Source: Candidatus Woesearchaeota archaeon
GTDB lineage: Archaea > Nanobdellota > Nanobdellia > Woesearchaeales > UBA10216
NCBI GenBank assembly: GCA_016188155.1
Contig: JACPIH010000011.1
Coordinates: 1 to 57,337 of the forward strand
Length of the DNA stretch: 57,337 nucleotides
Direction of reading: 5' to 3'
Part shown: positions 10,842 through 44,694 of the stretch, piece by piece
Numbering within the stretch: the stretch's first letter is position 1
How the letters are laid out: each line of letters starts with the position of its first letter
Notes under the pieces: model-generated
Database searches by the model: none
What the model saw: only the letters and a program-made list of their open reading frames with translations
What the model was told of the DNA's origin: nothing
Position numbers and translations under genes: made by a program

Positions 10842-10897
10842 AAGCCGTGTTTACTCATTTCCGTATTTAAACCTTTCGCAGGCGGAGGTGTCAGGCA

Positions 10898-11251
10898 ATT
10901 AGCGTCTTAGCTTTTGGCAAACAGGGCAGGATTTACCTCAGGTTCGTCATAGCCGCAGCGTTCCTCCTCGCATTAGTCTACGCCTACTCCGCCTTCGCAG
11001 CCGTTCCCTCATCCACTCCCTCAATTGTCAACACCAACGGCACTACAATCAGCAGCGTCCAGATTGCCAACGCCTCAATCGCCAGGGCCTCAGACCAGTT
11101 GTGCGGCTCTTCCAACTTCACCAGCGAGAACGGCACCTTCGAAGAGAACTCAACGTTCAAGTGGTTCAAGCGCACCCTTTACCAGCCCCAAAACAAAAGC
11201 CTGGTTGGTTACTGGAAGCTGGATGGGAACGCGAATGACAGCAGACGTTAA
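10898..11251 (+). CDS. True N-terminus (signal peptide, leader copy 3) of the giant LamG protein, ending at a frameshift
   Basis: Frame reads ISVLAFGKQGRIYLRFVIAAAFLLALVYAYSAFAAVPSSTPSIVNT...FEENSTFKWFKR...LVGYWKLDGNANDSRR*. The last part matches the internal repeat FEANSTFKWYKR..LVGYWKLDGNAND. The only SD-spaced start candidate is ATT 10898. Confidence 0.8.
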   Translation: MSVLAFGKQGRIYLRFVIAAAFLLALVYAYSAFAAVPSSTPSIVNTNGTTISSVQIANASIARASDQLCGSSNFTSENGTFEENSTFKWFKRTLYQPQNKSLVGYWKLDGNANDSRR

Positions 11252-14200
11252 CATCAGCAACAGCACAAGCCTGGATATTTATAACCAGATTACGGTTGAG
11301 GCCTGGATTAATCCGGCGTCGCTTCAGAGTGATAGGTTCATCATAACAAAGGGCAGCACAGGTAATAAGGGATGGATTCTTTACGAGAACAACGCCGGGG
11401 CTTTAAGGGCGTGGGTTACTGCTTCAACAACTGCGAGTGCTGAGAAGGAAGACGTTTTAGCTTCAGGCGTGTGGCAGCACATCGCGTTCACTTATGACGG
11501 CTCAAACGTGAGGCTGTATGTCAACGGCACTGAACAGGCCAGTGCCGCACTTTCCGGGGCGATTAACTACAGCGGGTTTGGGCAGCTTGTTTTTGGGCAC
11601 TCCGAAAACGGTCCTACTGGTAGGATGTTCAACGGCTCCATTGACGAAGTCTCCATCTACAACTACGCCAAGAGCGCAGCAGAGATTAAGGCAGACTACG
11701 ACAACTCGCCTTACAAGGCCATGATTTACAAGGATGCGGTGGGGTATTGGCATTTGGATTCGGTGAATGGCTCTAACGTGACTCTGGACGCTACCGGTAA
11801 TGGGAATGATGGTTCACTGGCGTTCTTTAACCAGACCAATGCTACAACAGGAGGCATCATAGGCAACGCACTTGATTTTAGTGTTGCTCTTAGTGGGACT
11901 GTAAATTCAAGAGTCAGGTTTCCGCTTACCAAGGGCTTGGGTGGTGTTCCTGCTGCCGCTAACTTTTCGCTGTCTGCCTGGGTTAAGTGGACAGGCAAGG
12001 CGCAGCCTAACCAAAACATTGTGAGTGCCAATAACTGGAATAATGCCGACAGCTACGGCCTTCATTACAGCGTTTCTGGTGACGGGAAATTATATTCCTC
12101 AATAGGCCAACAGCACAATAACGGCACAGGCATCACCTTCACGCCCATAGTAGGCAGGTGGTACTTTATCGTTGGAACTGCTACCGCAACCCTGCAAAGC
12201 CTTTACATCGACGGCGAGCTGGTATCTAACACCACTGTTGGCAAGGTCGCTGTTGCTGTTACCTCAGTCATACCGCCAAGTATAGGCAGTGCCAGCACAT
12301 CCGGAGTCAACGGCACAGTTGACGAAGTCGGTATTTGGAACAAATCCCTCTCCGCTTCCGAAGTCAAGCAGCTTTACCTGAGAACGTGGTATGACCACTC
12401 CCCCCAGCAGTTCCTGCTCCACCCGAACTATCCTGACCAGCTTGACAACTCCACTCAGAACACGACTTTGCTGCTGCACTTTAATGAGGGAACAGGCACT
12501 ACAACCGCGGACAGCTCGCCTTACGGCAACGCTGGCACGATTTCCGGGGCGTTCTTCACAAACGACTCGATTTCTGGTTCGGCATTGAAATTTGACGGCG
12601 TTAACGACTACGTCCAGGTTAACTACGCCGCGATCTTGAACATCACAACCAACCTTACCATGTCCGGCTGGGTAAAATATTCTGCCCTGCCAAGCGGCCA
12701 AGGCGTCATTATGGGCACATGGGGCGGGGAGAATAATAACAAGTCGTACATGCTGCAAACGTACGGTACCGGGCAAGTTGGCTTTAGCGTGGACGGCGCT
12801 ACCGAAGCAAGCAGCGCAAGTAATGCAGTGCAGGTTGGCCAGTGGTTTTACATTGCTGGAGTTATTGCCGGTTCCAATTACACCCTTTTCCTTAACGGCA
12901 AACCAGTTGACTCAGGCGCATTCGCACCCCCAAACAGAGTCGGCTCAGAGAATTTTTACGTTGGAGGCGACGCTGGCAAGTGGGGCCTTGGAGATGTTGA
13001 AGGCGTCATTGACGAGGTCAAAATCGTCAACCGCTCACTTTCCGATGCAGAAATCGCTGCCGAGTACAGGAAGGGCTGCCCGTTCTGCAGCAGCGACAGC
13101 GAGTTGCCCACGACAACTTCGGGCGTTGTGTGGCAGCCTGGGAGGTTTGTGGAGAACCTGACTGTTGACAGCACAGTGGCTGCATACTGGCGGTTTGACG
13201 AAGTCACCGGCTCAACAGTTTACGACATCAGCGGCAACGGCAACACAGGCTACAACTTCACAGGCAGGTTTACTAATGACAGCGTTGGCGGGACTGCTGC
13301 GAACTTCACCACAGGCAAATACTTTAACGTGAGCAACAGCAACAGCCTGAACGTCAACGGCAGCCTGACGATAGCTGCGTGGGTGAAGATTGCTGAAAAT
13401 TCAACTCTCAAAAACATTGTTGAGAAGGGTGACAGTTCTACTGACAAGAGGCAATACGCGCTCGGCATTGTCAATGACAATCCCAGATTCAGGGTGGAAA
13501 GGAGCGCTGGCGCAGATTATGCGGGAATAGACTCAGCATACAACCTTACAGTTGGCAGGTGGTATTACATCGTTGGCAGGTATGACCAGGCTTCCAGAGA
13601 CTCAAGCATTTACATTGACGGCATAAACACGAGCGGCAAGAGAGCTACCGGTCATGCGGCAAATCTTACTCCGCCGTTTGACATAAACCTGCTCATAGGC
13701 GCAGGAACTAGCGAAACGCCCGCTTCGTTTATGAACGGCTCCATTGACGAGCTCATAATCTACAGCAAGGCGCTTTCGCAGCAGGAAATACTCACCAATT
13801 ACAAGAAAGCCGCCAAAGGGCTTGGTCTTTTGAGCAACGACTACATAAACTACTCAGCAAGCAGCAACTTCAATGAAAGAGAAGGCACGATAGAGTTTTG
13901 GGTGAAGCCGGAGTGGAACGGGAATGGTGAAAACAGACCTCACGTTTTTGTTACTGCTGAGAAAACTAATAATGATTTCTTAATATATAAAGAATCTACC
14001 AATGAACTGCAGATTTTTGTACAAGATACCATCTTTATGGAATACGACGTCAGTGGATGGACTTCAGGCAACTGGAAGCACGTTGCGTTTACTTGGAACA
14101 ACTACACTTCTAACATGACTTTGCATGTTGATGGCACTCAAATAAACAATTCAGGCACAGCATTTACCATTCCCGCCCAAAACTATTTGGCGTTAGGTGC

Positions 14201-17200
14201 ACAAAACATCGGAAGCACACCTGCCACTTTTTGCAACTGCACCCTGTCCGAGTTCCGCATCTCAAGGAAAGCCCTCTCTGCACAGGAAATCAACGAGAGC
14301 TTCAGCAAGTCTCGCCAGCTTTACAGCAACGAGTTCATGCTCAACAGGAGCAACTTTGCGAAGGGCGACAGCTTCAAGGTCGAGTACACTGCAATGGACA
14401 AGGATAACCAGACTGGCAGCCCTGTGAATAGCAGCTTCATAACCGTTGTTAACACTCCTCCTGTCGCTGTTAACCTTTCTCTGCCCGCTTCTGGCACCAC
14501 TGTGCTTGACTTTGTCAACATTACTTGGAATGCCACAACCGATGCCGATAACGACTCATTTACTTACGTTGTTCTGGTTAACGGCACTACGCAATGCAAC
14601 AATCCTAACTCGGTGCTTAACTGCACCTACACCCCTTCAGCCAACGGCTTCTACCTTTACAACATCACGGCCTTTGACGGCACAGAAAACAGCACGCCGA
14701 CCAACGGCAATTTCACCTTTACCAACCTTGCTCCTAACGTGACTTATTATCAGCCGACCCCTTCAGACGCTGCTGTCATAACTGCGAACACTTTTACAGT
14801 CAACGTTTCCATTAACGAAACAACAGTTGACAGTTGCAGGCTGGAGCTTTACAACTCGACCAATGCTTCAAGGCTTAACTATTCCATGAGCAGCACAAAA
14901 CTTGCAGTTGGAAGCCCCAACCGGTACTACTGCAACATCACCGTAAGCACTGACAACGGCGTCACTTACTATTACCGCGTTTTCGCCAACGACACGCCGA
15001 TAGGTGCAACAACCGCTACTGCTGTGCGAAGCGTCAGGGAGAACATGCCTGCAAACTTCTCGCCAGCAGGGCTTGGCTCTGCAAGGAACGTCAGCCTGAA
15101 CGTAAGTACAGTTAACCCGGCAACTGGTCAGCCGCAGAGCCTTATTCCCGGCACGACAACGCCTTCAACTTCCCTTTACAAGCTCAGCCAGCTCGTTGGC
15201 TTTGCAGAAAACTACTCAGACCAGGACAGGGACTTTGAGGCCAACAGCACGTTCAAGTGGTACAAGCGTACCGAAGCAGCGAGGAAGGGCCTGGTTGGCT
15301 ACTGGAAGCTGGACGGCAACGCGAATGACAACAGCGGGAAAGGCAATGATGGTAACGGCACCTTTGTGCTCGGCTCTGGGCGCATTGACGGCGCGCAGCA
15401 ATTCTCAACTACTGTTCCGGCAAGGATAATAAACATCAGCGGAGACCCTTACAACTTCGGCACTGGAGATTTCACAGTTGAGTTTTGGACCAAAGACGCA
15501 GCAAGTAATGGCGCTTGTCTTGTATCAAAGTGGGACAACCTTGTAAATAGCAATCCTGGCTGGTCTATTCAATATATGTCTTCTGGGGGAGCAATACGGG
15601 CTACAATTAACGCCAGTGGAGGGGGGGAATTTACCCAATTTACAAGTGACACGGCAAATGTTGGGGACGGCGCATGGCACCACGTTGCTGTTACATTTGA
15701 CAGGGATGGCAGCGTTGTAATTTACGTTGACGGGACAAGCAAGGGTTCCTCAGGCATATCAGGAGTTTCAGGAAGCGTCAATAATAATCTGCATCTCCGC
15801 TTCGGAGCTTGCCACCGAGGCGGTGCTGACTATAGTGGCTCAACAGAAGCGCTCATGGACGAAGTCTCCATCTACAACTACGCCAAGTCAGCTGCCGAGA
15901 TTAAGGCAGACTACGACAACTCGCCTTACAAGGCCATGATTTACAAGGACGCTGTGGGCTACTGGCACTTGGATGAGAATGGCGGCACCAGCGGGTATGC
16001 GGACAGTTCAGGGAGTGGGAATACTGGAGCACCAAGGAATGGCACAATTAACACTACAGGCAAGATTAACGGCGGCGTCACTTTTGGAAGTTTTGGCTAT
16101 GTCAACCTTTCGCCAATTACCTTGAACAACTTCACAGTGGTTGCATGGCTTAACCCGAACGGCACAAGTGGTGCAGTAGTGGATGCTGAGCTGTGCGGGA
16201 TTACGGACGATTGGGGCATTCACAGCGCCTCAGGCAAGGGCGGAACAGTCAGGTTCCAGTTCGGGGATAACTCGGCAAACAAAGACTTTTTCCTTAACTC
16301 AACAGGCGTTTTGTCCAATAACACATGGTCTCATCTTGCTGTTTCCAGGAACGGGACAACTATCAGTTTTTACATCAATGGCATTCTTGATAACACAGCT
16401 ACAGGACCGCACACGAAGGATTTGGGTGCTACAAGTCCTGAGTGTGACATATACGGCAGGGCAATAGGCATCGGCAACCAGCAACGCGCCGCAGGTCTTG
16501 GAACTAGCACCGCCTTTGGCGGCACCATTGACGAAGTCGGAATCTGGAACAAGACCCTCAACGCTTCCGAAGTCAAGCAGCTTTACCTCAGGACGTGGTA
16601 TGACCACTCGCCTCAGCAGTTCCTCCTCCATCCCAACTATCCCGAAGAAGTTGACAACAGCACGCAGAACACGACCTTGCTGCTGCACTTCAACGACGTT
16701 TCTCCCAGTAATCCCAACTTGACCGACAGCTCGCCTTACGGCAATAATGGCAACATAAGCGGGGCGTTCTTTACCAACGACTCTATCTCAGGGAGTGCTT
16801 TGAGCTTTGATGGGAGCACAAGTTATGTGAACATAACTACAGACCCTGATATTACAAGCGCTACGAATTATCTTACTGTTATGTTGTGGGTTAAGGCTAC
16901 TGTAAGGAATGCTCAGGAATATATGTTTGCCAGAAGCCCGGATGCCAACAATTACGCGCCAATTATCCTTAAGCAAGCTGATCAGACCATCTCAGCTGTG
17001 GTTGATAACGCTGGCACAAGAAGCGTACAGCTCGATTCAGTTACCAAACTGCAGGCTAACATATGGACGCATGTGGCATTTACGTTTGACTACCCCAACA
17101 GTAACGCGAGGCTGTATATAAATGGCAAACTTGAAAATTCTACTGTTCCTATAACAGCGATGACTTCCACAGCAGCACAGGCTTCACTTGGTATGTTGCG

Positions 17201-18653: not shown

Positions 18654-21600
18654 TAATACTGCTCCGGGTGACACTTCATTGTCTAGTCCTGCGGATAATA
18701 CGAAGCAGGGCGTTTCTGTTGCTTTGAGTTGTTCGGCTGCTGGTGACTTGGATAATGATACTGTTTATTACCAGTTCCTTGGCGATACCAGCAATCCGCC
18801 AACTACTGCTTTGCAGAACTCCACTGATACTTCGTTTACCTGGTCAGGGCTGACGAGGGGCACTACTTACTACTGGCGCTGCAGGACTTATGATAATGAG
18901 AGCTGGGGGGCGTATACTGGTGCAAGGTCGTTTGCTGTTAACGTGCTTGCCACGCTGTCCGGCGTCAGAAACGCCTCTCTCAACGTTAGCCGTGTTGACC
19001 CTGCCACAGGCCAGCCGCAGAGCCTTATTCCCGGCACAACCACTCCTTCAACTGCCATTTACAAGCGTGACCAGCTCGTAGGCTTTGCTGAAAACTATTC
19101 TGATGCTGACCGCGACTTTGAGGCTAACAGCACGTTCAAGTGGTATATTAACAACACGAACCAGAGCTGGGGAGGCGGCAACCGCACTGCTGAAATGGTT
19201 GCCATGATTTACAAGGGTGCTTTGGGTTATTGGCATTTGGACAACGACGTGAAGGACAGCAGCGGCACTGGGAACGACGGAAGCTTGATTGGCTCTGTGA
19301 ATGCAACTAACGTGTCAGGCATGATTGGCAAAGCGATTAACTTCACACAAGTGAGCTATGTTGAAGTGCCTAACTCTGCGACTACGCGCGGTCTTAAGAA
19401 CCTTACAATAAGCGCGTGGGTGATGCCTTTCTATAGCAGTGGTACCAGTGCGATAAGGTATATACTGTATAAGTGCACTGGCAATCAGGCGTGCGGTCCT
19501 GCTGATGCTTCAAACACCGATTACACGCTATACTTGTCAGGTGGTAATACAATTGCGTTCAGGCCTAATACCGGTATTTTAACGACAAACGACACAATAA
19601 GTAACGGCACGTGGCACCATCTTGTGGTAACAGAAGACAGTAGCGGCAACGCCAGGATTTACATTAATGGCGAGTTTAAAATAAGCGAGGCCGGGTTCTC
19701 GGTAGGAGGTGCAAATGCGTCCAAGCTGCGAATAGGCAACGGAAAAGATGGAGAGTTGAACAATTTCTTCGGCAGCATAGACGAAGTCGCCATCTACAAC
19801 AAAACATTAACGGCAGCCGAAGTCAAGCAGCTTTACCTCAGAACGTGGTACGACCACTCCCCCCAGCAGTTCCTCCTCCACCCCAATTACCCTGAAGAAG
19901 TTGACAACTCCACGCAGAATACTACTTTGCTGCTGCACTTTGATGAGGGAACAGGAGCGAACGTTACCGATAGCAGCCCTTACGGCAACAACGGCAAGAT
20001 AACTGGCGCGTTCTTCACCAACGATTCCATTTCTGGCAGTGCGCTGAGCTTCGGGACGAATGACAACGTTACAATCGCTGCTTCTCCAACCCTAAGCCCT
20101 GACAAGGCCATAACAGTCATGGCGTGGCTTAAGCTCTCTTCATGGAGCGATTCCAGGGTATTGGCACTGGCAGATGACGTAAGTGACCTTGACGGCTATG
20201 TCTTAAGAACTGACGTTCCGTCAGATTCAATCTTCTTCAGCGTTGGTAATGGAACAAAACGGGATAGTTCTGCTGTGTTTCCTATTGACGTTAACAAGTG
20301 GATGCACATAGCAGGCACTTACAACGGAAGCCTGATAAGAATTTTCAAGAACGGGGTTGAGAATGGCTCAGGAACTGCCCATTTAGAGAACATAACCTAC
20401 ACTCCAAACATACTGTTTGCAATAGGGAAGGCCTACGACGCAAACGGGGTAACCGGCATCATTGACGAAGTCAAAATCGTCAACCGCAGCCTCACCGCCG
20501 CTGAGATTTCTGCTGACTACCGTAAGGGCGTGAGGTTTGGCAGCAGCGACGGCGAAGCCCCAACTTCCGAATCCGGCGTTGTGTGGCAGCCCGGAAGGTA
20601 TGTGGAGAACTTATCGCTGTCTGCTCCCTACGCCAACACTACCGCCTATTTGAGGCTTGACGATGGCTCAGGAACTACGGCAACCGACCTTAGCGGCTCT
20701 GGCAACTCTGGCAGCTTCCAAGGCGCAGCCAACAACGCATCATGGACTAATGATTCCGTAAGCGGCTATGCCTTGAAGTTTGACGGCGTTGACGACTTTG
20801 TGAAAATACCGCTCTCAGCCTCGCTTAACGCTACGTGGAACGGCTCTAACGGCTTTACAGTCTCTGCTTGGCTTAAGAGGGGCAACATATCCACAGGAAA
20901 TTATCCAATAATTAAGGAAAGCACCGGGGCAAGCGGTGACTGGTGGATAAGCACAGGAGGAAATTGGATTTGCAATTCAGGCGGAGGCAGTGGCACTGCA
21001 AGCACTGGCGTGCGTGTAATTAACGGCGAGTGGCACTTCATAACTTTAACTTACAACACCACTCTACTCTCATGTTTCCTTGACGGCGTCCTTTACGCTA
21101 CAGACACCACTCCCGGCAGCATGTCAAGGAGTAACACGTCAGTCTTCCTCGGAGCTTGGGGCAGTGGCGATGGCGTTAACGCAGGCGGTTACTGGAACGG
21201 CACAGTTGACGAGCTCAGAATAGTCAACAGAACACTCTCTGCAGCCGAAATATTGGCCGACTACCGCAAAGCCGCCAAAGGACTGGGCCTGTTGAGCAAC
21301 GACTACATCAACTACTCGGCTACTGGCAACTTTAACGAGAGGGAAGGCACTGTGGAGTTTTGGGTGAAGCCGGAGTGGAACGGGAATGAGCAATTTGCCA
21401 GGACATTTGTCGTCTTGGAAAAATCTAACAATGACTTCCGTCTGGGAACTTTGGTAAATACCAATGATTTGGTGGTTATGGCAACCGATACTGTAATGGT
21501 TAGAAAAAATATTGGTGATTGGCTTATTGGCAATTGGCGGCACGTAGGTGTTGTTTGGAATAATTACACCTCAAACATAAGCCTGTTTATCGATGGTTTG

Positions 21601-33800: not shown

Positions 33801-36800
33801 TCAAGGTTGACTGGAGCACCACTGGCTTGTCTGATGGCACGAACTACGAGGTCAGGGCTAACGCAACTGATGATGCAGGGAACTCGGCTAATGTCAGCAA
33901 CGCCAATATTGAGGTTGATAATACTGCGCCAACGATTACGATTGTCAATCCTACCGCCGGCACTGAGGTCTCGGGAACATTCAACATTACCTTTACGATA
34001 CTTGGCACAGTCCACGACACAGAGATTCAGTTTGATGGCGGGGCATGGGCTACTGCTAATGACAAGACCTACCACCTGTGGGATACAACCGCTTACACAG
34101 ACACCACCCACGCCATAAGGGTAAGGGTTAATGACTCTGTGAACAATACCGGCTACAGCGACATAAGGTTGGTTACTGTTGACAACGGAGGAGCGCCTGT
34201 AATCCTTCTTGAGCCGGCTTCCAGCGGCTACAAGTCCGGCAACGTTGACATCACAGTCAGCGGCCCGGGCACGACATTCAACGTTACCTTTAACGTCAGC
34301 AACTCAACCGGCTACTTCAACACCTCAGGCACTGAAAACGTCGTTACCCTTGACAACGTAAGCGGTGACGGATGGTCGGCAGTGTGGGCAACGGGAGGGT
34401 TTGCCGAGGACAGCATTTACACTATTACAGTCAGGGCTTACAGCGCCAGCAACGCCCTGCTGGGAACAGACACGGCAGTCAGCATTGAAGTTGATAACCT
34501 CATACCTGCAAACGTGACACGCATCAATATAACCGACTCTCCGACAGACCTTGACGGCAACCTGGTTATCAACTGGACATCAACATCAAGCGCTGACCTT
34601 GACCACTACAACCTGTACAGGTCACAGACAAGAGGCTTTAACATAAGCACTGGCTCATTGCTGAAGAGCGTGGCTGGCAACACCACAACAGACAATGTTC
34701 CGGCTGGAGTTTGGTTCTACAAAGTAACTGCTGTTGATAACGTCGGAAGGGAAAGCAATGCGAGCATAGAAGCTAACACGACCATCGACATCGTAGGCCC
34801 AACAGGCACCATGGACATCAATGCGACATACGCCAGGGACAACGACACAATAAAGTTCATTTACACGGGCTCGGCAACAGGCTTCACCGCAATCGTAAAC
34901 GCATCTGAGATGCAAAAGCTGGACGCCAGGGTCCTGCACGGCTTCGAGACCTTGTGGGAGACTTCAAACAACAACAGCCTGAACATGACCCTGAACAGCA
35001 CAACAACCAAGGCTGGCAGCTTCAGCAACCAGCTCAGGACTAACGAGTCAGGCGCCTTGGGCCAGAACATAACAGTTGACTTATCCGCAGGAGGTGCTGT
35101 TAACCTCAGCAGGTACAACAGGCTTCTGTTGTGGGTGCAGGCGAACACCACTGGCAGCCTGTTCAACCTCACGTTTGGCAAGGACAACTACACAGACTTC
35201 AACTTTACCATTACCGTAAACACTGCCAACGCCTGGGAGCAGAAGATAATTGACATATCAACCATACCTGTGCTTAACCGCAGTTCTGTAAGGTACCTGA
35301 TGTTTAACGTAACAACCACCCAGCCGTTCAGGGCGTTGCTTGACGGCTTGGAAGCCAGCAACCAGATAAGCTTGGTCGACGACGGCACAGGAGGGGATGC
35401 TGTTGCGAACGACGCGAGTTACACTGGCGTTTACAACATAACATCTGATAACAACTTAACCGATGGAGCCAAGACAATCAGGGCTTTGATTGACGACGGC
35501 TCTGGCAACTTCCTCGCCCCTCAGGACACGATAACCCTTGACGGCACGCCGCCCAACGGCACTGTGCTGATAAACGAGGGCGACCTGTTCACCATTACGA
35601 GGACAGTGACGCTTAACCTTACGTTTGTTGACGCCACTTCAGGGGTTAAGGACTGCAGGTTCAGCAACACTGAGCCGTTGACTTCGAGTTATGAAAGCTG
35701 CCAGGTGCTCAAGGTATGGACCACCACGACCGGCGGGGGCACAAAGACAGTTTACTTTGAAGTGAGGGACCAGGCTGGCAACATAAACGTGAGCATAGAC
35801 ACGATAACCCTTGACGTGAGCGTCCCAGCAATGGCAATAACTTACCCGTTGCCAGGGGCAATTGTCAACGGCAGCATTAACGTCACTTTCACTGGGGCAG
35901 AAAGTACGCAGCCGCAGATAAGCTTTGACGGCGGCAACTGGACGAACACAACAGCATCCACTTATCATTTCTGGAACACCACAAACCTTTCAGAAGGCAC
36001 CCATGGCATAAGGGTCAGGGACACCGATGCAGCTGGGAACATAGGTTACTCTGAGACGCTGCTGGTTACTGTTGACAACATTCCTGGAGTGGTTACGTTT
36101 GTGCAGCCTGGCAGCAGCCAGGTGCTCACCGGGAATGTGACAGTCATTGCTGTTGCTCCTGACAACACGGTCAACATGAGCTTCTGGATATTCAACACTA
36201 CTTCAGGAAGGAGCGTTCAGGTTTACAACGACACGCTTGTTGCTGACGGCTGGAACTTCAGCCTCCAGACAGCGCAGTTTGAGGATGGCGCCTGGGACCT
36301 TTATGTAAATGCTACTGACAGCTTTGGCAGGATGTTTGACACTGCTTCTGTGCACGGCTTGAGGTTTGACAACAACGTGCCAACAGTGAGCTTGGCAACG
36401 CCCGCCAATGGCGCAACGGTAAGGGGCACTGTGATAATCAACGCGACAGCAAGCTCTGATGTCAAGCAGGTCATGTTTGAGTACAGCAACAACTCAGGCA
36501 CTGACTGGCAGCCGATAGGGATTGACTTCAGCCCATCTGCAGGATGGACGTTTGCGTGGTATACCGTTGCACTGAACGACGCCTCAACTTACAGGGTCAA
36601 GGCCAACGCTACCGACTACGCGGGCCTTTCTGCAATTGGCCAGAACACTGCTGACTTCACCATTGACAACACCGCTCCGACCATAACCATAACCACTCCT
36701 GCGCCCGGAAGCTACGTTAACGGGACCACCACCATCAACTTTACCGGCAACGCTTCCCCAACTTCTGAGCTCAGCATTGACGGAGCATCATGGACTAACA

Positions 36801-39800
36801 TTACGAACTCAACATCGTTTGCGTGGAACACCGCAGCTTACAACGACGGTACGCACACACTGCAGGTCAGGAATAACGACTCGGCTGGCAACACCGGCTT
36901 AAGCGGCACTGTAGCTGTGATTGTTGACAACACCAGGCCAACAGTCGTTATAATAAGCCCGCTAAGCAACACAACGATAAAGGGCAACGTTACAGTGCTG
37001 GTCTCGACCTATTTTGACACTGCAAGGCTTGACTTCTACGTTGACAACAACACAGGCTCTGGCTGGGTTTTGAGGAGGTCTGACACCAACAAGGCTGACG
37101 GCTGGGACTTCGCCTGGGACACAGCGCTTGATTGTGCCACAACAGGAGAGTGCACGGGCGTGAGGCTGAGGGTTAACTCGACAGACGCGGCTAATTTGAC
37201 AAGCAACTTTACAGTAAGCGGGTTGGAGATAGACAATACAGCCCCAACAGTTACGCTGCTCTACCCACCCGACAGTGCAACGATTAGGGGAGTTATTATC
37301 GCCAGTGCTACCGGCAGCAATGACACGAGGCAGGTTGTGTTTGAGTACAGCCCTGACTCGGGCTCCACATGGTACACCATCGGCACTGACCCGAGCTCTG
37401 CCAGCGGCTGGAACATTACCTGGGACACGAGGCAGGTTGCTGATGCCGCAACTTATCGTGTCAGGGCAAACGCTACAGACAACGCAGGACTTTCAGCAGC
37501 TGTGCAGAACACTGCTGACTTTACCATTGACAATGTTGAGGCGGCAACGACAATAATTAGCCCGAAGGCCGGCACGGTTGTTTCAGGCAACTTTACTGTT
37601 ACGGCCATTGCCCCTGACAGCACGTTCTATGTCCTGTTCAGGGTGTTTAACGGCTCTGGCAATTTCAGCTTTAACGGCAGCGGCAGTGCTGGTTTCACTA
37701 ATGACAGCTCTCCTGCTGACGGCTGGTCTGCGAAGTGGAACACCACGGCATTCACTGATGGGCTGTACAACCTGTCAGCTGCTTCGTATGATGTTAATGG
37801 CAACTACATCAGCAACGGTACCGAGCTTGGCATCAGGGTTGACAACAACGCCCCAACTGCTCCAACGCTGAGCGCCCTGCCAACATTTGACACAGACGGC
37901 GTGGTTGTGCTGGAGTGGAGCAACGTTACAGCTTCAACCGCTGACGTGATTTATTACAACGTGTACCGCTCAACAAATGTAAGCTTTGCACTCTCAACAG
38001 CTACAAAGATTAAGAACGTCAGCAGTAACTTTAACACCACAACAGACTTCCCGGGCGTTAATGCCAAGTATTATTATAAGGTTACTGCTGTCGACAATGC
38101 GCTGTTTGAGTCTGCAGCGAGCAATGAGGCCAACACGACCGTTTCTGTTACAGCTGCTGGCGCGCTTGTGGGAACCTTATCTGTTAATGACACAATCGTG
38201 AAGGATGCCGACGCTGTTGTGTTTAGCTATTCGAGCAGCGCAACCGACCTCAACGTCACTATAAACACGACTGAGATGCAGCGGCTTGACAACTCCACCA
38301 GGGCCGACCTGAGGCTACAGGATGGTGGGGCGCCTCCAGACAGGGTAGCTGACGATGGAGTCTATGCAGCATTGTTCACGATTTCAACGGACAACAACCA
38401 GAGCGATGGTAACGTCCAGCTCAGGGCCATAGTTAACGACTCTGCCAACAACCAGTTCCTGCCCACGATCAACATTACCCTGGACAATGCAAGGCCTAAT
38501 GCTTCGTTGCAGATAAACAACAACCTTGGCATTACCTCTTCAAGGGAGGTTACGCTGCAGGTCAGGTTTAACGACACCTTTGGCATCCAGAAGTGCAGGT
38601 TTGCAAATGAGGACAGGGACTTTGACGACTGGGAGGGCTGCACTTCAACAAAAGCTTGGAGGCTGTCTGCCACTGATGGGCTAAAGACTGTTGTTGTGCA
38701 GGTAGCCGATAACGCCGAGAACGTGAATGAGACCAACGACACAATAACGTTGACAACAGTAGCTGCTACAACAATAATTACGCCTAGAAGCTACAGCGTG
38801 GTGTCAGGCAACTTTACAGTAATTGCTGTTGCCCCGCCAACGACGGGCTTTGTGCTCTTCAGCGTGTTTAACGGCTCTGGCAATTTCAGCTTTAACGGCA
38901 GCGGCAGTGCTGGTTTCACTAATGACAGCACGCCTGCTGACGGCTGGTCCGCGAGGTGGAACACCACTGCGTTTAGCGACGGCCTGTACAACCTCTCGGC
39001 GGTTTCCTACGACGTTAACGGCAACTACATCAGCAACGGCACTGAGCTTGACATCCGCGTAGACAACAACGCCCCAGCAGCAGTAACCCTGACGGCATTG
39101 CCTGCCTACTTCAACAAGAACATAATTGCGCTGAACTGGAGCCCAAGCACGAGCTCTGACGTTGCCTGGTATAACGTGTACAGGTCGAACAACATCAGCT
39201 TTGTGCTGAGCAGTGGGGCATTGCTTAAGAACGTCAGCACTAACATCACTTTCGATGTTGTGCTTGACGGCCAGTGGTTCTACAAGGTAACGGCTGTTGA
39301 TGCTTCCGGGAGGGAAAGCGCTGCGAGCAACGAAGTAAACGTTACAGTCGTAACCGGAGCTCCTCCGAGCGAGATTTTTGGCACACTCGCTGTTAATGAT
39401 TCGATAGTCAACAATGGCAGCTCGCTGCTGTTTACGTTTGCAGGAAGCGCGACTAACCTTAACGTCACCATAAACCAGTCAGAGATGCAGAAGCTCGACA
39501 ACACCTCAGGAGCACTGCAGCTCAACGACTCAGGCATTAATGGCGATTACCTCGTGGATGATGCAACTTACTCTGCAATTTACGCCATAAGCATGCTCAA
39601 CAACGAGAGCGATGGAATGAAGCAGCTAATTGCCAGGGCTACTGACATTGCTGGCAACCTGTTCATGCCTGCTGTTAACATCACTCTGGACAACACAAGA
39701 CCAAATGCAACGATAAGCATCTTCGGCATCAGCCCTGCCGGCTTTACCAATGTCAGCACCGAGTACACATTCAGCAGGGCAGTTACTTTGGTTATGGCGT

Positions 39801-42478
39801 TTAACGACACGGCAGGTAACACAGTGAGTGGCTCAGAAGGCGTTGACAGCTGCAGGTTTGCCAGCGAGAACCTAGTATTCAGTGGCTGGGAAGTATGCCA
39901 GACTGTTAAGGCTTGGTTGTTGTCTGACGGCAACGGCAACAAGACTGTGGTTGTGGAAGTTCGCGATGTGGCAGGCAATGTTAACAGGACCAATGACACG
40001 ATATTCCTGAACACATCAGGAGCAGGCCTTGATGTCACTCCGCCAAACACCCCGACTGTTGTTGATGATGGCATGTACACCAACATTGATTCGTCATTGC
40101 ATGCGAAGTGGAACTCAACAGACCATGAGAATGAGCTGCTGCACATCCCGCTTGAGTGGGAGTACAGGATTGCCTTTGACAATTTCACGAGGCGCATCAA
40201 TGAGACGTGGCAGTATGCTGGAATGGCCACTGAGGCCACTGTTTACGGCATGAACCTGAGCGGCGGCACCAATTACACGTTTGAAGTCAGGGCCATTAAC
40301 ACCGCCGGTTTGAGGAGCGCTAACGGCACAAGTGACGGGATAATAGTTGACATCACCCCGCCTTCTGCCCCGGCTGTCAACAGCACTGCTGCCCAGAGCA
40401 CCTGGAGTTCAAACAATGCGGTGTCGTTCAACTGGTCTTCAACAGATAGCATTTCTGGAGTTAGCTCATACAGCTACGTCCTTGACACCACTGCCACCAC
40501 CATTCCGGATAACGTGCCCGAAGCTGAGAGTGACCATACGGCACTGGCCAGCAGCTCCAACGATGGCAAATCTACAATGCTGAAGTTCAACAGCACAGGC
40601 AACGCCTCTGCCGTGTTTGTTGAGGTCAAAGCCAATCTTTCAGCCAATGACGTTGTCAGGGTAACTGTGCAGCTGGCAGAGGCCTCTACAAGCTCGCCTG
40701 ATGCCATGGGCTTCAGGGTCTACATCATTACGGCAGTTCCGACATCCTTCGCGATGAACGGCAGCAACGTCAGCCTGATTGCGGACACGAGCAGTGACAT
40801 AAGCTTTGTGAGTTCAATTCTGGATGCTACAAGCTATACTGTTGAGATTCCTATGACTACTCCGGTAACGGGCTCGAGGTTCTTTGTTGCGGTTGCCGGT
40901 GATGCTGCTGATGACAACAACAGGCACAACCTGCTGCTTGCTGTTTCCAACAGCTCAATTGACAGCTCAACGCAGAGCTACCAGTGCGGCGAAGTTACCG
41001 GTGTATGCAGCAACACGACAGACACTGCCGAGTATGGCATAAAAGTGGACGTGCGTGACTTAAAGCAGGATGACATTTGGGACAGGGCTTACACTGTCGG
41101 CGATGGCAGGATGTACTTCCACGTCAAGGCAAAGGACAAGGCAGGCAACTTTGGCGACACGACAAACTATTCATTGCTGGTAGACACCTCACCGCCTTCC
41201 ACTCCACAGATGAGTGAGCCTTCCAAATTCACCAACACGACCTCTGTCACATTTAACTGGACTCAGAGCAGGGATGCTGACTCAGGCGTTGACAACTACA
41301 GCCTCCAAGTGGATAATAATTCTGACTTCAGCAGCCGCGAGTTCTACGCCTGGGTCAACAACGTTACCAACTATACTGTAACAGGCTTGACTGCCGATGC
41401 AACATATTACGCCCGTGTTCACTCCAGAAACCTTGCTGGCGTCAACAGCAGCCTGAGCAGCTCAGTAAGCACTGTGATTGATACAACCGCTCCATCAATT
41501 ACGTTCAGCAAGCCGAGCTCAACAGGCGTTGTTGCTTCACAGAATGTTGTGCTTGCCGTGAACACCAACGAGAAGGCCATATGCACCTACAACCTCAACA
41601 GTGCGCCTTACCTAAACTTTACCTACACCAATAGCACCTATCACGAGACAAGGGTAAGCGCCAACACGGGCTCGAACACCGTATTGGTTAAGTGCCACGA
41701 TACCATCCTCAATGAGAACTCACCTGTTTCCACAACCTTTGATGTGAGCACGACCTCTACAGCATCATCCATAACTCTGCAGAGCCCGACAGTTTTCACT
41801 GGCGATGTCGTGCGAACCGATGTAATTGTGACAACCTCATCAAGCCAGAGGCTTGGCGAGCTCGGCACTGGCGCCTTCACGGTAAAGATTAACGGCGGGT
41901 CCATCCCGGCGTCTGTGTTTGACAACGGCGCTGGCAACTACACGCTTGTGTTTGACTCTCCTGCGACAAACGGAACTTACACAATGGGAGTTGATGTTGG
42001 CTCTGCCACAGCCACAGCAACCCTGACTGTCAGGGCTCTGCTGTTTACTGTGCAGTACGTGCAGTCCGGCATTAGCAGCAATTCAGGAGACAGGCTCATC
42101 TATTTCCTTGCAGGCAACTTCTCGCTTGGCCTTGCGACGGACAGCAGGAGCTTTGACAAGTCGTCAACGAGCTCTGCCCTTAACCTGACAAGCGATGCAA
42201 GGGCCGGTACCGCTTACATATTCGTGACGAGGCAGTCCGGCGGTGTTGAGAGGGTTGAGGGCCTGCTTAAGGAGAGGAAGTTCCTTGACTCCGCGAACCC
42301 GAGCTTTGGCTACGCCATTGACCAGGACACGTTTGTTGTCTTCACGGACCTTGAGTACGATGATATATCCCTTGCCGGGAACAAGACGCTTACAGCCGGC
42401 CGCTACAACCTCATCATAGAAAACAAGGGCTTTGACGCCACTTTGAACAAGACCAAGCTGGAAGTGAGGGTGCAGTGA
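21842..42478 (+). CDS. Giant surface protein, part 4 (more than 6,800 aa): eight LamG domains, many Ig-like/FN3 repeats, a beta-helix-like stretch and four choice-of-anchor-X-like motifs
   Basis: VGYWRFEDD occurs seven times. Repeated VDNTxP and DxAGN Ig motifs. LNDNGTSPDLVANDAVYSG-type motif four times. No C-terminal TM helix. Frame is open from TGSEVNSSYL at 21842; the ORF track starts at 21998. Confidence 0.92.
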   Translation, partial: TGSEVNSSYLTVNNSQPSEPTITDFGREGVDGTAESVAANRASSATPANATFMTAVNITWTASADNDSDTINYTVLINNTLVCDTQSLSCNTTQLPSWNGNAAFYIFNVTAFDQEWNSTTTTYAFMFDNTTPTMSIIALTPANNTFQNTTSYFINLSVTEGSVDRVILNITGPSFATASSSGRNITLWDKDLVGMWHFEENANDSSGYNNDGTRGQNAAFNSTCRLGGCANFTLAVHNITIADSASLNFTQFTIQAWIRIENLSGRTTDFPNILGKQLSATNRNYVLYVRNDTGIFFGSSSFSGSQQDLSSNVKVMNTTQGWHNVAYIVNSTHQAVYVDGTRRNTASYTGTADRQSSPLIIAKSPAASGESLVFNGTIDEVKIWRRALSAGEISAEYNRTASNYLASHIVSGAAAHTFSLNMTNLTNGNYSWFAWVNDSSSAVAATTATTVNSAVGQREFKVDLIPPAISFVANTPANQSVLPTSYIFINTSENDAGNDHNELSAFIDFNSSLVGYWRFEDDGDTNASDFTNNNNNGTLTSFGCMTLNCNLTGGTGGTGSGWTSAGKRGKALKFDGENDFVNVSYSESLNLTNLTAIAWVYLDRQSPASYVDIVSRQSVFRLEVAAAPHVNRFSFVVYNTTLGQSALLGTNSLSDGWHHVAGVFNGTHYTIFTDGNRSNSAAFLGSINHTSQHLTIGASLFGVENFNGSIDEVQIWNRVLDAQEINASYQAGVYRLFRNFTGLNDGNYSFRAFVVDASGNMNVTDNRTFSVDTTAPSLSFIATTDANASFLNRSFTIVNVSTTETSEHSVFVDFNRSMVGYWRFEDDADTNASDFSTYSNNGTLVGFGCTTADCNLTGGDGGTGSGFTSAGKRGKAMMFDGVDDLINTSKTYTQLGISKELTIEAWIKAANSNGMGRKTIVGDNDNLILLIANASSARASRHAYPQGANASFSIKAGFFHVTATYSDVRASQTNEVKLYVDGEFMANVTITNSANNPLTELVRIGHDTATSGRTPWNGSLDEVKIWNRVLNDTEINASYQAGTYRYTKNFTGLNDGNYSYYAAVVDSAGTLVQTVNRTVYVDTVGPAISLIANTPANQSVLSSNYIFINTSENDGGNDHNELSAFIDFNRSLVGYWRFEDDGDTNASDFTNNNNNGTLVGFGCTSLNCNASSGWTSAGKRGKALNFDGVNDRVRNPGLSGLSADAITIEAWFFRRESGVRMLLSRNRFSANEWDLFPSSWRFNNGSTTNQYDTVTSVQNDVWNHLVVTYDKNAGGNNVNVYLNGKLEVSGATGGTLGTGGITTIGSFQDGTTDYFSGTIDEVKIWSRALSAQEINSSYQAGQYRLFRNFTGLADGNYTARAFVVDAAGNMNVTDNRTFSVDTVAPTIAYIFPTEANNSFVNRSFTVVNTTVTETGESSAFINFNNSLVGYWRFEDDGDTNASDFTSNNNNGTLLNFSCTAADCNLTGGLSGLGTGFTSAGKRGKAMAFDGVDDIVRISDKDIFTFGDGSSVDSPFSLTAWIKINPELAFRVIVAKMNALSNEEWVLQLNTNNSVSFGTADPSASARATVVSPAVQNNTWLHIAATYNGIGGSNAAAGMNLYVNGVPQNVRNSTADGYVAMENRPSNVVIGSEGLPAGGSFFNGTIDEVMIWNRNLSAEEINASYQAGTYRLFRNFSGLADANYSFNVSVVDWAGTIFTNVTRNVIIDTTFPLISYGLGSDANGTSLARNYIHLNVTVDELNPRNLTAFLFSGAAIIASQNVSVNKTPSSNNVTFLSVSDGYYNVSVSVRDLADNVNTTPTNRSFTVDTTVPVLAYAAPSFANASFVNVSWIFLNFSFTEINNGTLMIRNGSTNWTNVNASSGYFFYNFSPRADGNYTFFGWINDSSGQVAQTVNRTVYVDTVGPAISLIANTPANQSVLSTNYIFVNTSENDAGSDHNELSAFIDFNNSLVGYWRFEDDGDTNASDFTSYNNNGTLVNFGCTTLNCNLTGGVRGFGSGFTSAGRRGKALNFDGQGNAVNVSDSASLSSFSTYSLEAWIKPHEGTSGRIVRKDGEYAISILGYPYLASEHKAGAACGGAWSSLWDDTALQPDSWYYVAVTYNGSNRTLYVNGNYENSSADTGSLPDCSTPLMIGSSQTFSSVFNGTIDEAKVWNRALSADEINASYSAGVYRLFRNFTGLNDGNYSYRAYVVDAAGNMNVTVNRTFAVDTVAPTIAYIFPTEANNSFVNRSFTVVNTTVTESGESSAFINFNNSLVGYWRFEDDADTNASDFTSNNNNGTLVGFGCTAADCNLTGGAGGVASGFVSSGKRGKGMAFDGVDDYVEFANQSSLNLTGALTIEAWVMKIGSPSNERGIVARYWNYGAFPLNRSFTLDEQSSGVPIFLISQDGAINNNTAATTTLQNNTWYHIAGVYVPSTSISIYVNGVLEGNKTAGIASSILNNPKSPVRIGVTFDPEVASRYFNGSIDEVKIWNRALNESEINASFQAGTYRLFRNFSGLPDANYSFNVTVVDWAGNLFTNKTRNVVVDTTLPLISFGLGSDANGTSLARNYIHLNVSVVELYGHNLTAFLFSGSSIIASQNVSVNTTPAFNNVTFLSVADGYYNISISVRDLADNVNTTPTNRSFTVDTTQPLIDNGSGISSPGFRNVNWAFINYSFTEVNNDTMYIRNGTGGIVTNTTPNKNTTYFWYNFTSLDNANYTFSGWINDTAGRLNTTTNTSIVIDTVFPTVDFGLGSDVNGSSVARNYIHLNITVTELYGHNLTASLFSGTTLVALQNVSVNTTPYFNNVTFLSVSDGYYNITIKVKDMANNTNTSVNRSITVDTTAPVLNYAAPSFANASFVNVSWIFLNFSFTEINNGTLMIRNGSTNWTNVNASSGYFFYNFSPRADGNYTFFGWMNDSSGAVAQTVNRTIFIDTAGPLITYEATSFANATYNKFVTINITANDTANDHNELSAFVDFNGSLVGYWRFEDDGDTNATDFTNNNNNGTLVNFSCTALNCNLTGGTGGTGSGWTSAGKRGKALVFDGNRTHVETSDINALDGTSSLTVEAWVRPTILFGSEAIVAKWDYDTDASFAMQQNPAGAIQVFIADSLTDTGGNRAVTDKVVLNASTWTYVAFVFDGTGSGNAARLKIYADGVAVPITFTGTIPAATTSGNTATLKIGRFGGTLNRYWNGTIDDVKVWNRSLSAAEINASYQAGNYRLITNITSSDSKYANGNFTYYAAVVDAAGNMNRTETRLVVLDNTAPVIAAIRTFSNVSGFFFQATNTTSAVTAYFNSLAAGQSGGADSGGGGQEAIVEVAYTDLYRSSLSGNTTFSDTPSNITRADPTRVAYTIETGSGNATAAVYANDTANNTATATVRFILDINDTVTTDNSSSSFTWFSTNVTINLTAVDVANGSGANKTLYCTYTSGTTSCTPTVEVANPTDFRLPINCSTGSSCTIRVRYYSIDNVSNNESGGANGGQIRESNTVNIATGGSDVQDSLVNNSVITNASFVRQSNITNSMVNGCRVTGSIITRSWMFRQADTRFNCSISDSVVIDSNLTSAVVEKRSYIDPSTIVDSVITNSSIRNSTVNYSRVDSSIFCGNFTLWSADVLNNVLVSGRLEFNDTVYFGPVSLNSICGLVAPSPVGTLAAEPSIVNDSSSVVFKYSATALGYTVTIGSNELVKLDNTSTKSITLNDNGTSPDLVANDAVYSGNYSISALNNESDGNKTIVAQVNDNIGNNWTVNTSVTLDNTPPSAAIVINSNNLNTTSAVVTLNITSSDATAGVKDCRFANEDRIFGSYEQCTIVKTWTLSSGSGLKTVVVEVRDKAGNFNETNDTITLLGIGTVIVSPQSGEIVKGSKLVIVSAPDSATWVTFNITNATNSGHTWNLAGTANQITNDTTPSDGFSQTWTTTATAFANESKFNLTVISYDASGNQLSNDTKGNIEVDNNPPTVTLDVPNANGLYHGVVAVNASASSDTSKVRFEYRRGTGDWTVIGEAVTPPFKVDWSTTGLSDGTNYEVRANATDDAGNSANVSNANIEVDNTAPTITIVNPTAGTEVSGTFNITFTILGTVHDTEIQFDGGAWATANDKTYHLWDTTAYTDTTHAIRVRVNDSVNNTGYSDIRLVTVDNGGAPVILLEPASSGYKSGNVDITVSGPGTTFNVTFNVSNSTGYFNTSGTENVVTLDNVSGDGWSAVWATGGFAEDSIYTITVRAYSASNALLGTDTAVSIEVDNLIPANVTRINITDSPTDLDGNLVINWTSTSSADLDHYNLYRSQTRGFNISTGSLLKSVAGNTTTDNVPAGVWFYKVTAVDNVGRESNASIEANTTIDIVGPTGTMDINATYARDNDTIKFIYTGSATGFTAIVNASEMQKLDARVLHGFETLWETSNNNSLNMTLNSTTTKAGSFSNQLRTNESGALGQNITVDLSAGGAVNLSRYNRLLLWVQANTTGSLFNLTFGKDNYTDFNFTITVNTANAWEQKIIDISTIPVLNRSSVRYLMFNVTTTQPFRALLDGLEASNQISLVDDGTGGDAVANDASYTGVYNITSDNNLTDGAKTIRALIDDGSGNFLAPQDTITLDGTPPNGTVLINEGDLFTITRTVTLNLTFVDATSGVKDCRFSNTEPLTSSYESCQVLKVWTTTTGGGTKTVYFEVRDQAGNINVSIDTITLDVSVPAMAITYPLPGAIVNGSINVTFTGAESTQPQISFDGGNWTNTTASTYHFWNTTNLSEGTHGIRVRDTDAAGNIGYSETLLVTVDNIPGVVTFVQPGSSQVLTGNVTVIAVAPDNTVNMSFWIFNTTSGRSVQVYNDTLVADGWNFSLQTAQFEDGAWDLYVNATDSFGRMFDTASVHGLRFDNNVPTVSLATPANGATVRGTVIINATASSDVKQVMFEYSNNSGTDWQPIGIDFSPSAGWTFAWYTVALNDASTYRVKANATDYAGLSAIGQNTADFTIDNTAPTITITTPAPGSYVNGTTTINFTGNASPTSELSIDGASWTNITNSTSFAWNTAAYNDGTHTLQVRNNDSAGNTGLSGTVAVIVDNTRPTVVIISPLSNTTIKGNVTVLVSTYFDTARLDFYVDNNTGSGWVLRRSDTNKADGWDFAWDTALDCATTGECTGVRLRVNSTDAANLTSNFTVSGLEIDNTAPTVTLLYPPDSATIRGVIIASATGSNDTRQVVFEYSPDSGSTWYTIGTDPSSASGWNITWDTRQVADAATYRVRANATDNAGLSAAVQNTADFTIDNVEAATTIISPKAGTVVSGNFTVTAIAPDSTFYVLFRVFNGSGNFSFNGSGSAGFTNDSSPADGWSAKWNTTAFTDGLYNLSAASYDVNGNYISNGTELGIRVDNNAPTAPTLSALPTFDTDGVVVLEWSNVTASTADVIYYNVYRSTNVSFALSTATKIKNVSSNFNTTTDFPGVNAKYYYKVTAVDNALFESAASNEANTTVSVTAAGALVGTLSVNDTIVKDADAVVFSYSSSATDLNVTINTTEMQRLDNSTRADLRLQDGGAPPDRVADDGVYAALFTISTDNNQSDGNVQLRAIVNDSANNQFLPTINITLDNARPNASLQINNNLGITSSREVTLQVRFNDTFGIQKCRFANEDRDFDDWEGCTSTKAWRLSATDGLKTVVVQVADNAENVNETNDTITLTTVAATTIITPRSYSVVSGNFTVIAVAPPTTGFVLFSVFNGSGNFSFNGSGSAGFTNDSTPADGWSARWNTTAFSDGLYNLSAVSYDVNGNYISNGTELDIRVDNNAPAAVTLTALPAYFNKNIIALNWSPSTSSDVAWYNVYRSNNISFVLSSGALLKNVSTNITFDVVLDGQWFYKVTAVDASGRESAASNEVNVTVVTGAPPSEIFGTLAVNDSIVNNGSSLLFTFAGSATNLNVTINQSEMQKLDNTSGALQLNDSGINGDYLVDDATYSAIYAISMLNNESDGMKQLIARATDIAGNLFMPAVNITLDNTRPNATISIFGISPAGFTNVSTEYTFSRAVTLVMAFNDTAGNTVSGSEGVDSCRFASENLVFSGWEVCQTVKAWLLSDGNGNKTVVVEVRDVAGNVNRTNDTIFLNTSGAGLDVTPPNTPTVVDDGMYTNIDSSLHAKWNSTDHENELLHIPLEWEYRIAFDNFTRRINETWQYAGMATEATVYGMNLSGGTNYTFEVRAINTAGLRSANGTSDGIIVDITPPSAPAVNSTAAQSTWSSNNAVSFNWSSTDSISGVSSYSYVLDTTATTIPDNVPEAESDHTALASSSNDGKSTMLKFNSTGNASAVFVEVKANLSANDVVRVTVQLAEASTSSPDAMGFRVYIITAVPTSFAMNGSNVSLIADTSSDISFVSSILDATSYTVEIPMTTPVTGSRFFVAVAGDAADDNNRHNLLLAVSNSSIDSSTQSYQCGEVTGVCSNTTDTAEYGIKVDVRDLKQDDIWDRAYTVGDGRMYFHVKAKDKAGNFGDTTNYSLLVDTSPPSTPQMSEPSKFTNTTSVTFNWTQSRDADSGVDNYSLQVDNNSDFSSREFYAWVNNVTNYTVTGLTADATYYARVHSRNLAGVNSSLSSSVSTVIDTTAPSITFSKPSSTGVVASQNVVLAVNTNEKAICTYNLNSAPYLNFTYTNSTYHETRVSANTGSNTVLVKCHDTILNENSPVSTTFDVSTTSTASSITLQSPTVFTGDVVRTDVIVTTSSSQRLGELGTGAFTVKINGGSIPASVFDNGAGNYTLVFDSPATNGTYTMGVDVGSATATATLTVRALLFTVQYVQSGISSNSGDRLIYFLAGNFSLGLATDSRSFDKSSTSSALNLTSDARAGTAYIFVTRQSGGVERVEGLLKERKFLDSANPSFGYAIDQDTFVVFTDLEYDDISLAGNKTLTAGRYNLIIENKGFDATLNKTKLEVRVQ

Positions 42479-42999: not shown

Positions 43000-43013
43000 A
43001 ATAGTGGTGTCGC

Positions 43014-43520: not shown

Positions 43521-43569
43521 AATAACGGCATAGTGGTTAATAGAAATAAGCAGATAGCGATTAAAAGAG

Positions 43570-43920: not shown

Positions 43921-43931
43921 GGTGGGTTGCG

Positions 43932-44489: not shown

Positions 44490-44490
44490 C

Positions 44491-44630: not shown

Positions 44631-44694
44631 CCATAGGCGATGTGGAAAGGTCAATCAAAAAACGACTGCCTCTTTACTACAGGTCAATCAATAA

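Follow-up and report, generated by a model that had tools for sequence, protein, structure and literature searches.

A probable single gene for a giant LamG-rich surface protein, interrupted by likely assembly omissions, in a groundwater Woesearchaeota genome

Positions 10898-42478 of the window, four reading frames in a groundwater Woesearchaeota (DPANN) genome of ~1.1 Mb, probably form a single gene whose product is a giant surface protein of ~10,500 aa or more; the frame breaks are most likely assembly losses at repeat edges and probably not real mutations. This reading is based on an uninterrupted 10,883-aa frame in a genome of the same genus (G006), two relatives that remain in frame at the third break, independent metagenome contigs that depart from the deposited sequence at the breaks, and the absence of leaders on the downstream pieces. 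A first-pass annotation of this DNA had likewise proposed a single gene, and the intact collinear frame, the read-through at junction 3, the contig departures and the leaderless downstream pieces support that proposal. Its length estimate of ~10,500 aa is retained only as a minimum, because sequence has probably been omitted at the junctions and the true gene may be longer. The protein is probably an exported, N-glycosylated multi-lectin adhesin on an Ig/FN3 stalk, as judged from its sequence. The window, that is, the whole stretch of 57,337 nucleotides analyzed, comprises an entire contig (C30) of a 1,075,335-bp genome in 41 contigs, and the gene accounts for 2.9% of this 1.075 Mb.

A frame scan of the window identified four stop-to-stop frames on the + strand (10871-11251, 10977-18653, 18592-21879, and 21800-42478), as the earlier description of four co-oriented pieces had stated. 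Each successive piece lies in the +1 frame relative to the preceding one, and neighboring frames share 62-275 nt, leaving no gap between them. Translated each in its own frame, the pieces add up to 115 + 2,463 + 1,069 + 6,877 = 10,524 stop-free residues, and the 10,409 codons downstream of piece 1 contain no stop. Giant genes were defined by West-Roberts et al. as > 30,000 bp / 10,000 aa, tested here as one uninterrupted frame of more than 30 kb; in the window the gene spans 31,581 nt in four frames, versus 32,649 nt uninterrupted in the G006 orthologue. The earliest in-frame canonical starts in pieces 3 and 4 are TTG 18679 and ATG 21998, and no hydrophobic leader follows either of them in the translations checked, consistent with the previous claim that the downstream pieces have no leader of their own. 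The features of the region are summarized in Table 1.

Table 1. Positions of the features discussed, numbered from the first letter of the window
Feature	Position	Strand	Basis or detail
Peptidase_A24 (prepilin peptidase) gene	2328-3212		family match on contig
Shine-Dalgarno-like GGAGGTG	10884-10890	+	7 nt 5' of ATT 10898
Putative non-canonical start ATT and N-terminal leader	10898-10999	+	translation
Piece 1: leader, N-terminal segment, beginning of first LamG module (LVGYWKLDGNANDS)	10898-11244	+	frame 2
Junction 1, +1 shift, cuts first LamG module	11244-11245	+	G006, internal paralogue, contigs
Piece 2: 10 Laminin_G_3 stretches, two ~1,400-aa super-repeats, FN3-like linkers	11245-18635	+	frame 0
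154-nt repeat copy, ends ...GGCTACC at junction 2	18483-18636	+	98% identical to 21691-21844
Junction 2, +1 shift	18635-18636	+	~44 nt fewer than intact paralogue 14235-14440
Piece 3: FN3-like domain, then 4 Laminin_G_3 stretches	18636-21843	+	frame 1
Second 154-nt repeat copy, ends at junction 3	21691-21844	+	98% identical to 18483-18636
Junction 3, +1 shift	21843-21844	+	relatives, loose contig letters, paralogue
Piece 4, first part: 8 Laminin_G_3 stretches interleaved with Big_13-like Ig domains	21844-31450	+	frame 2
Short-period repeat segment, possible beta-solenoid	32261-32683	+	Hexapep_GlmU below cut-off, periodicity
Four choice-of-anchor-X + two-Cys Ig-like modules	32870-39574	+	motifs 32870-32923, 35372-35425, 38315-38368, 39521-39574
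fn3 domain	41231-41467	+	Pfam (protein 5, residues 3078-3156)
Conserved C-terminal 300 residues, end ...IENKGFDATLNKTKLEVRVQ then stop	41576-42478	+	alignment of 8 orthologues
Five small conserved genes	42475-45015	+	42475-42999, 43014-43520, 43570-43920, 43905-44489, 44695-45015
MazF/PemK toxin gene in ~6.5-kb insert	45355-45687	-	family match
T2SSE ATPase gene	53986-55671		family match on contig

No ATG, GTG, or TTG occurs in frame ahead of the leader in the window, and the putative start is an ATT. An ATT located 7-8 nt past GGGGGTG is also found in G006 and in a second genome of the same genus (G005), so that this arrangement occurs in three species. The corresponding start contexts lie at 10864-10900 in the window, at 3380-3430 in locus L009, and near 26054 on the - strand of G005:C10. 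A TTTAAA box is positioned ~30 nt 5' of the ATT in the window and G006, and TTTAA lies ~20 nt 5' of it in G005; this spacing would suggest a nearly leaderless transcript. As delimited by eye, the leader comprises a basic n-region (KQGRIYLR), a 15-residue hydrophobic core (FVIAAAFLLALVYAY), and then SAFA-A, a pattern kept in three relatives, namely G006, G005, and the more distant G041. An AxA site of this kind is typical of signal peptidase I.

The uninterrupted orthologue in G006, a same-genus Candidatus Woesearchaeota MAG (G006:C29, JACPBX010000006.1), shares its leader and C-terminus (...KTKLEVRVQ) with the window gene, and piece 4 aligns collinearly to it at 56-72% identity. Also common to both are the LamG super-repeats, the Ig/FN3/choice-of-anchor-X part, and the five downstream genes. 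The two differ in the number of Laminin_G_3 stretches (24 in G006 versus 22 in the window) and in the N-terminal LamG region, which is ~1,350 aa longer in G006 (5,009 aa versus ~3,650 aa). The more distant G041:C6 also encodes an uninterrupted orthologue, of 6,057 aa. At the equivalent of junction 3, the reading frame is maintained both in G006 (KLGYSVGDGFELSPEINSSSYLTV; KLGY-SVGDGFELSPE-INSSSYLTV) and in a 76% identical metagenome contig, L024 (KLGYTPSDGFEPGSEVNSSYLTV; KLGY-TPSDGFEP-GSEVNSSYLTV), where it stays open over the entire 4,239-nt locus. At E <= 1e-3, blastp found no match in the G006 and G005 proteins for the FN3-like beginning of piece 3, so junction 2 has paralogous comparators only; in a homologous protein search with the first 403 aa of piece 3, the best match was only 40% identical. 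In G005:C10 (3254-26054, L011/L012), the homologue falls into frames of 5,908, 458, and 1,404 aa, with the splits located at near-identical repeats (SSPADGWSAKWNTTAF...). This split is probably the same kind of assembly problem; read as a sign and not as an artefact, it may mean that real breaks occur in such genes. In the G041 locus (L023), a 107-aa frame at 904-1224 repeats the leader and the first ~60 residues ~1.5 kb upstream of the 6,057-aa orthologue, which runs from 2451 onward.

Junctions 2 and 3 both fall at the final base of a 154-nt repeat segment, and the internal paralogue at 14235-14440 is intact and stays in frame. Relative to G006 and an internal paralogue, ~30 residues of the first LamG module are absent at junction 1, and the shortfall at junction 3 is ~26 nt against the paralogue at 14235-14440, or ~23 nt as implied by the loose letters of contigs. 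The junctions were checked with k = 31 contigs, not raw reads, from four groundwater runs, placed on positions 10,800-22,300. These contigs come mostly from one study, possibly the window's own source, and run X5 from a second study is uninformative for junctions 2 and 3, with a depth of zero at 18096-18863 and under 0.3 at 21552-21935. Among the contigs listed, those of three of the four runs (X1, X3, X4) leave the window just past 11244, where the loose-end consensus blends two contigs with an agreement of 0.62. In the same three runs, a full-depth contig of 1,240 letters starts on the window at 18636 and has zero differences over 18636-19846 (1,211 nt), while its 29 upstream letters do not fit the window. 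The listed contigs that start at 21844 carry eight loose letters (TTTGAAAG) ahead, which read F-E-S in the frame of piece 4, in agreement with G-F-E of G006 and L024. The departure points among these listed contigs (11244, 18636, and 21844) match the three frame breaks at single-base precision. Together with the intact frame of G006 and the read-through at junction 3, these departures make short omissions at repeat edges the most likely cause of the breaks, and we consider it probable that all three arose during assembly. The repeat-end 27-mer gave 0 matches when searched in metagenome contigs. A genome-wide list of overlapping frames was rejected as a gauge of the frameshift rate, as its 134 pairs were swamped by normal gene packing.

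Further departures were observed within the repeats. In window positions 15024-21551, full-depth hybrid contigs join 18032 to 21295 (30 other letters) and 19908 back to 16668 (15 other letters), which suggests that at least one extra LamG super-repeat, or a close strain, is missing from the window; some of these hybrids could derive from co-occurring relatives. Given these contigs and the longer LamG region of G006, the repeat-rich N-terminal third of the window may be collapsed. In addition, a contig inserts 36 letters after 11223, reading KFRQEFQPQDRS, a peptide that G006 has between two LVxYWKLD copies. This insert would reflect either a 20-codon tandem duplication collapsed in the window or a co-occurring relative.

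If the three frameshifts were real, as deletions of ~23, ~44, and ~90 nt or more, the gene would have been recently inactivated in this population and only a leader-bearing 115-aa stub would be exported. The deposited window sequence does carry all three frameshifts, the G005 homologue is likewise split at near-identical repeats, and repeats favor slipped or illegitimate recombination. However, the full-depth contig that departs at 18636 matches the window as the same strain would, the loose letters at 21844 restore residues of the orthologues, no stop has accumulated further on, and three independent out-of-frame losses exactly at contig-break positions would be a coincidence; we therefore regard inactivation as unlikely. 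It is much less probable still that the pieces are separate genes with internal starts at TTG 11025, TTG 18679, and ATG 21998. Although start codons are available in frame and GGTGA lies 9 nt 5' of TTG 18679, the downstream pieces lack leaders despite their wholly extracellular-type domains, intergenic space is nil between the overlapping frames, and the breaks cut a LamG module and linkers that are continuous in paralogues and orthologues. The absent leaders and the position of the breaks inside continuous domains led us to reject this explanation. Programmed +1 ribosomal frameshifting or phase variation that joins the frames is scarcely credible. All three shifts are +1, and a GGCTACC context is common to junctions 2 and 3, but at each junction residues present in paralogues and orthologues are missing from the DNA and could not be supplied by a frameshift. 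A slippery site, a stop at the shift point, and a homopolymer are all absent, and independent contigs differ from the window at the junctions. Programmed frameshifting was rejected on account of the missing junction residues and the absent slippery site.

The domain content of the pieces was determined by profile searches. Laminin_G_3 (PF13385) was found in 10, 4, and 8 stretches by Pfam (756.9, 287.3, and 593.8 bits; cut-off 27.6), a total identical to the 22 LamG domains counted in the first-pass annotation. The LamG modules stop near 31,450, and the final third of the protein consists of Ig/FN3-type modules. Other Pfam matches were Big_13, Big_7 (7 stretches), Big_3_3, fn3, and Invasin_D3, in line with the Ig/FN3 domains claimed earlier. 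The NCBIfam model choice_anch_X (NF041940) scored 60.6 bits against a cut-off of 25 in 3 stretches, and a regular expression located 4 copies of the Asp-rich motif, so that the four choice-of-anchor-X-like motifs noticed earlier were recovered. Each motif precedes a two-Cys Ig-like domain by ~90 residues, and Big_7, Big_13, and Big_3_3 domains are interspersed among the four modules. A beta-helix-like segment had also been proposed, and for the 141 residues encoded by 32261-32683 this proposal is weakly backed. The hydrophobic residues recur with a period of ~5.3 residues (z = 3.75 at lag 5), but the Hexapep_GlmU match reached 17.2 bits, below its Pfam cut-off of 23.3, and the AlphaFold2 model was uninformative (pLDDT 33.4). 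A beta-helix-like fold is nonetheless plausible here. The TafC family of fimbrial proteins (NF052521) was matched only in the LamG part, at 223.1, 86.3, and 312 bits, all below the equivalog cut-off of 410.

With 562 N-x-S/T sequons over its 10,524 residues (5.3 per 100), the protein is 10 times richer in such sites than the background, which is 0.53 per 100 across 625 ORFs of 200-900 aa in this genome. This confirms the very dense N-glycosylation sequons reported earlier. A gene for STT3/AglB is present in the genome (C36, 128 bits). A hydrophobicity scan of the whole protein found only two hydrophobic 19-residue windows, the N-terminal leader and an internal strand-like stretch at residue 9307, and no membrane-anchor-like segment besides the leader. 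The C-terminal 300 residues are 47-92% identical to the window in the 8 orthologues and contain no hydrophobic anchor, transmembrane helix, or covalent-anchor signal. AlphaFold2 modeled this region with a pLDDT of 64.9, the first ~150 residues as beta-sandwiches and the last ~150 poorly; a search of the last 150 residues against the Protein Atlas returned no usable match. Over the last 1,292 codons, dN/dS against the relative L014 is 0.33, which fits a functional surface protein and is also compatible with a very recent loss.

The first of the five small downstream genes overlaps the stop of the giant gene by 4 nt, and the five-gene block follows the giant gene in five of the six related loci with downstream sequence (L014, L015, L016, L018, and L019), whereas it is absent from the distant G041; within the genus, the giant gene is invariably followed by this block. 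In four of the five genes, a K-K/R-G motif is followed by a hydrophobic N-terminus, and the gene at 43905-44489 matches the archaellin/type IV pilin N-terminal domain (TIGR02537) with 29 bits against a cut-off of 20; no family match beyond TIGR02537 was obtained for the five. The contig also carries the prepilin peptidase and T2SSE ATPase genes of Table 1 and a DUF7289 pilin-like gene. A complex prediction that paired the C-terminal 300 residues with residues 31-174 of the first downstream protein (174 aa) returned no answer, with a score of 0.00, and so leaves the question of binding where it was. Compared with G006, the window (45000-51600) has ~6.5 kb of extra sequence that separates the pilin-like block from the DUF7289 gene and contains the MazF/PemK toxin gene, two ORFs without a family match, and a gene for a protein of 961 aa carrying a CarboxypepD_reg domain.

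That the protein is exported, glycosylated, and anchored, binds partners, and takes part in host contact is inferred here from sequence. The N-terminal leader would carry the giant protein across the membrane, and the oligosaccharyltransferase encoded elsewhere in the genome would glycosylate many of the 562 sequons. In the N-terminal two thirds, at least 22 concanavalin-A-like (Laminin_G_3) modules would bind glycans or proteins on another cell, while the Ig, FN3, and choice-of-anchor-X modules of the C-terminal third would form an extended stalk or spacer. The conserved C-terminal domain would hold the protein to the envelope, possibly via the downstream pilin-like proteins. In Gram-positive adhesins, the binding modules come first, the stalk next, and the wall-proximal end last, and the similar layout of the window protein suggests such an envelope-holding role for its C-terminal 300 residues. 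The proposed designation as a host-recognition adhesin draws on the domain content and on the literature on other DPANN archaea.

Two further possibilities for the function, both of which we hold to be rather improbable, concern the same single protein. The giant protein could be the cargo or tip of the surrounding type IV pilus-like system, either through cleavage of its K-K/Q-G leader by the prepilin peptidase or through docking of its C-terminal domain on the pilin-like proteins. Modular type IV pilins such as PilC of Streptococcus sanguinis carry a lectin-fold module on a pilin-type N-terminus and are encoded beside pilin genes and a prepilin peptidase. The window resembles this arrangement in its Peptidase_A24 and T2SSE ATPase genes. 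A basic residue follows the Gly in the K/R-G-like motif ahead of the hydrophobic core (K-Q-G-R in the window, K-K-G-K in G006, K-K-G-R in G005, and K-R-G-K in G041), and the AFA-A site comes after the core. Unlike PilC-type pilins, however, the giant protein has an AxA site, is ~100 times larger, and has an N-terminus that matches no pilin model: a search with its first 117 residues returned nothing from NCBIfam (TIGR02537 included) and, at E <= 1, no pilin family from Pfam (PF07790 included), whereas the downstream gene that starts at 43905, used as a positive control, did match TIGR02537. If the pilus-borne arrangement were true, a thin filament would present a glycosylated array of at least 22 lectin modules and >1 megadalton to the host cell, making the protein a giant modular pilin, or an adhesin borne on a pilus, without a described archaeal counterpart. 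Alternatively, its main role may lie not in host adhesion but in a protective or matrix layer rich in glycans, the role suggested for halomucin, or in a scaffold for polysaccharide capture. In favor of such roles are the extreme N-glycosylation potential, the presence of glycosyl hydrolases in the Laminin_G_3 clan, and the description of the role of archaeal huge LamG proteins as "not understood" in PMC11573180. The arguments against are all indirect: the giant protein lacks a mucin-like low-complexity region, its 22 diversified lectin-fold modules with an Ig/FN3 stalk have the layout of an adhesin, and its gene order beside pilin-like genes is conserved. An adhesin that contacts other cells remains the preferred interpretation.

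Large LamG proteins have previously been described in archaea. As reported in PMC11573180, no other domain comes close to Laminin_G_3 in frequency among archaeal huge proteins (>= 5,000 aa), almost all of which have it; the commonest architecture given there is a single N-terminal Laminin_G_3, whereas the window protein has 22 across two thirds of >10,000 aa. Archaeal proteins of >10,000 aa are reported to be rare (bioRxiv 10.1101/2023.11.21.568195). The SPEARE proteins of Nanohaloarchaeota reach 8,553 aa, combine laminin-G with other adhesion domains, and have been proposed to act in host attachment, and one of them was detected by proteomics (Hamm et al. 2019, PMC6642349). Both they and the window protein are very long DPANN surface proteins with laminin-G. 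SPEARE proteins are described as also carrying serine-protease and toxin-like domains, a transmembrane anchor at the C-terminus, and a restriction-endonuclease part that is cytoplasmic and conserved (PMC6642349). In the window protein, Pfam found no protease or restriction-enzyme (type III-like) family at E <= 0.01 and no toxin-like domain, and the hydrophobicity scan found no transmembrane segment near the C-terminus; as a protease, a restriction enzyme, and such an anchor define SPEARE proteins, assignment to them was rejected. Other large nanohaloarchaeal proteins with LamG/ConA lectin-like domains are described as organism-specific, with many N-glycosylation sites and a predicted host-specific attachment role (La Cono et al. 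2020, PMC7443923). They belong to another DPANN lineage and habitat, and the window protein, with at least 22 LamG modules, is far larger. Among the papers listed for LamG surface proteins of Woesearchaeota, none describes the family of the giant protein.

If it is one protein, it would rank among the largest predicted in Archaea: those named as the largest in 2019 were a SPEARE protein of 8,553 aa and halomucin with ~9,000 aa (PMC6642349), both of which it would exceed. As an addition to the already known archaeal LamG surface proteins it is very large, and the link to pilin-like genes is the most interesting lead. The share of the genome devoted to this gene strongly hints at a central place for cell-cell contact in the life of the organism, and the conserved pairing with pilin-like genes offers a concrete, testable model of how Woesearchaeota hold their partners. 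The case also illustrates how short-read assemblies hide giant genes, as the deposited sequence would be annotated as leaderless fragments or a pseudogene. A search with the C-terminal 1,059 residues brought up relatives from groundwater MAGs, with Candidatus Woesearchaeota as the title of six of the seven loci, and all database relatives carry the name "hypothetical protein". One locus, L017 (CAZBFZ010000061.1), is a 5.4-kb contig in an "uncultured Methanosarcinales archaeon" bin that encodes the C-terminal 1,803 aa of the giant protein family at 71% identity; its placement there likely reflects mis-binning or the co-binning of a host and its symbiont.
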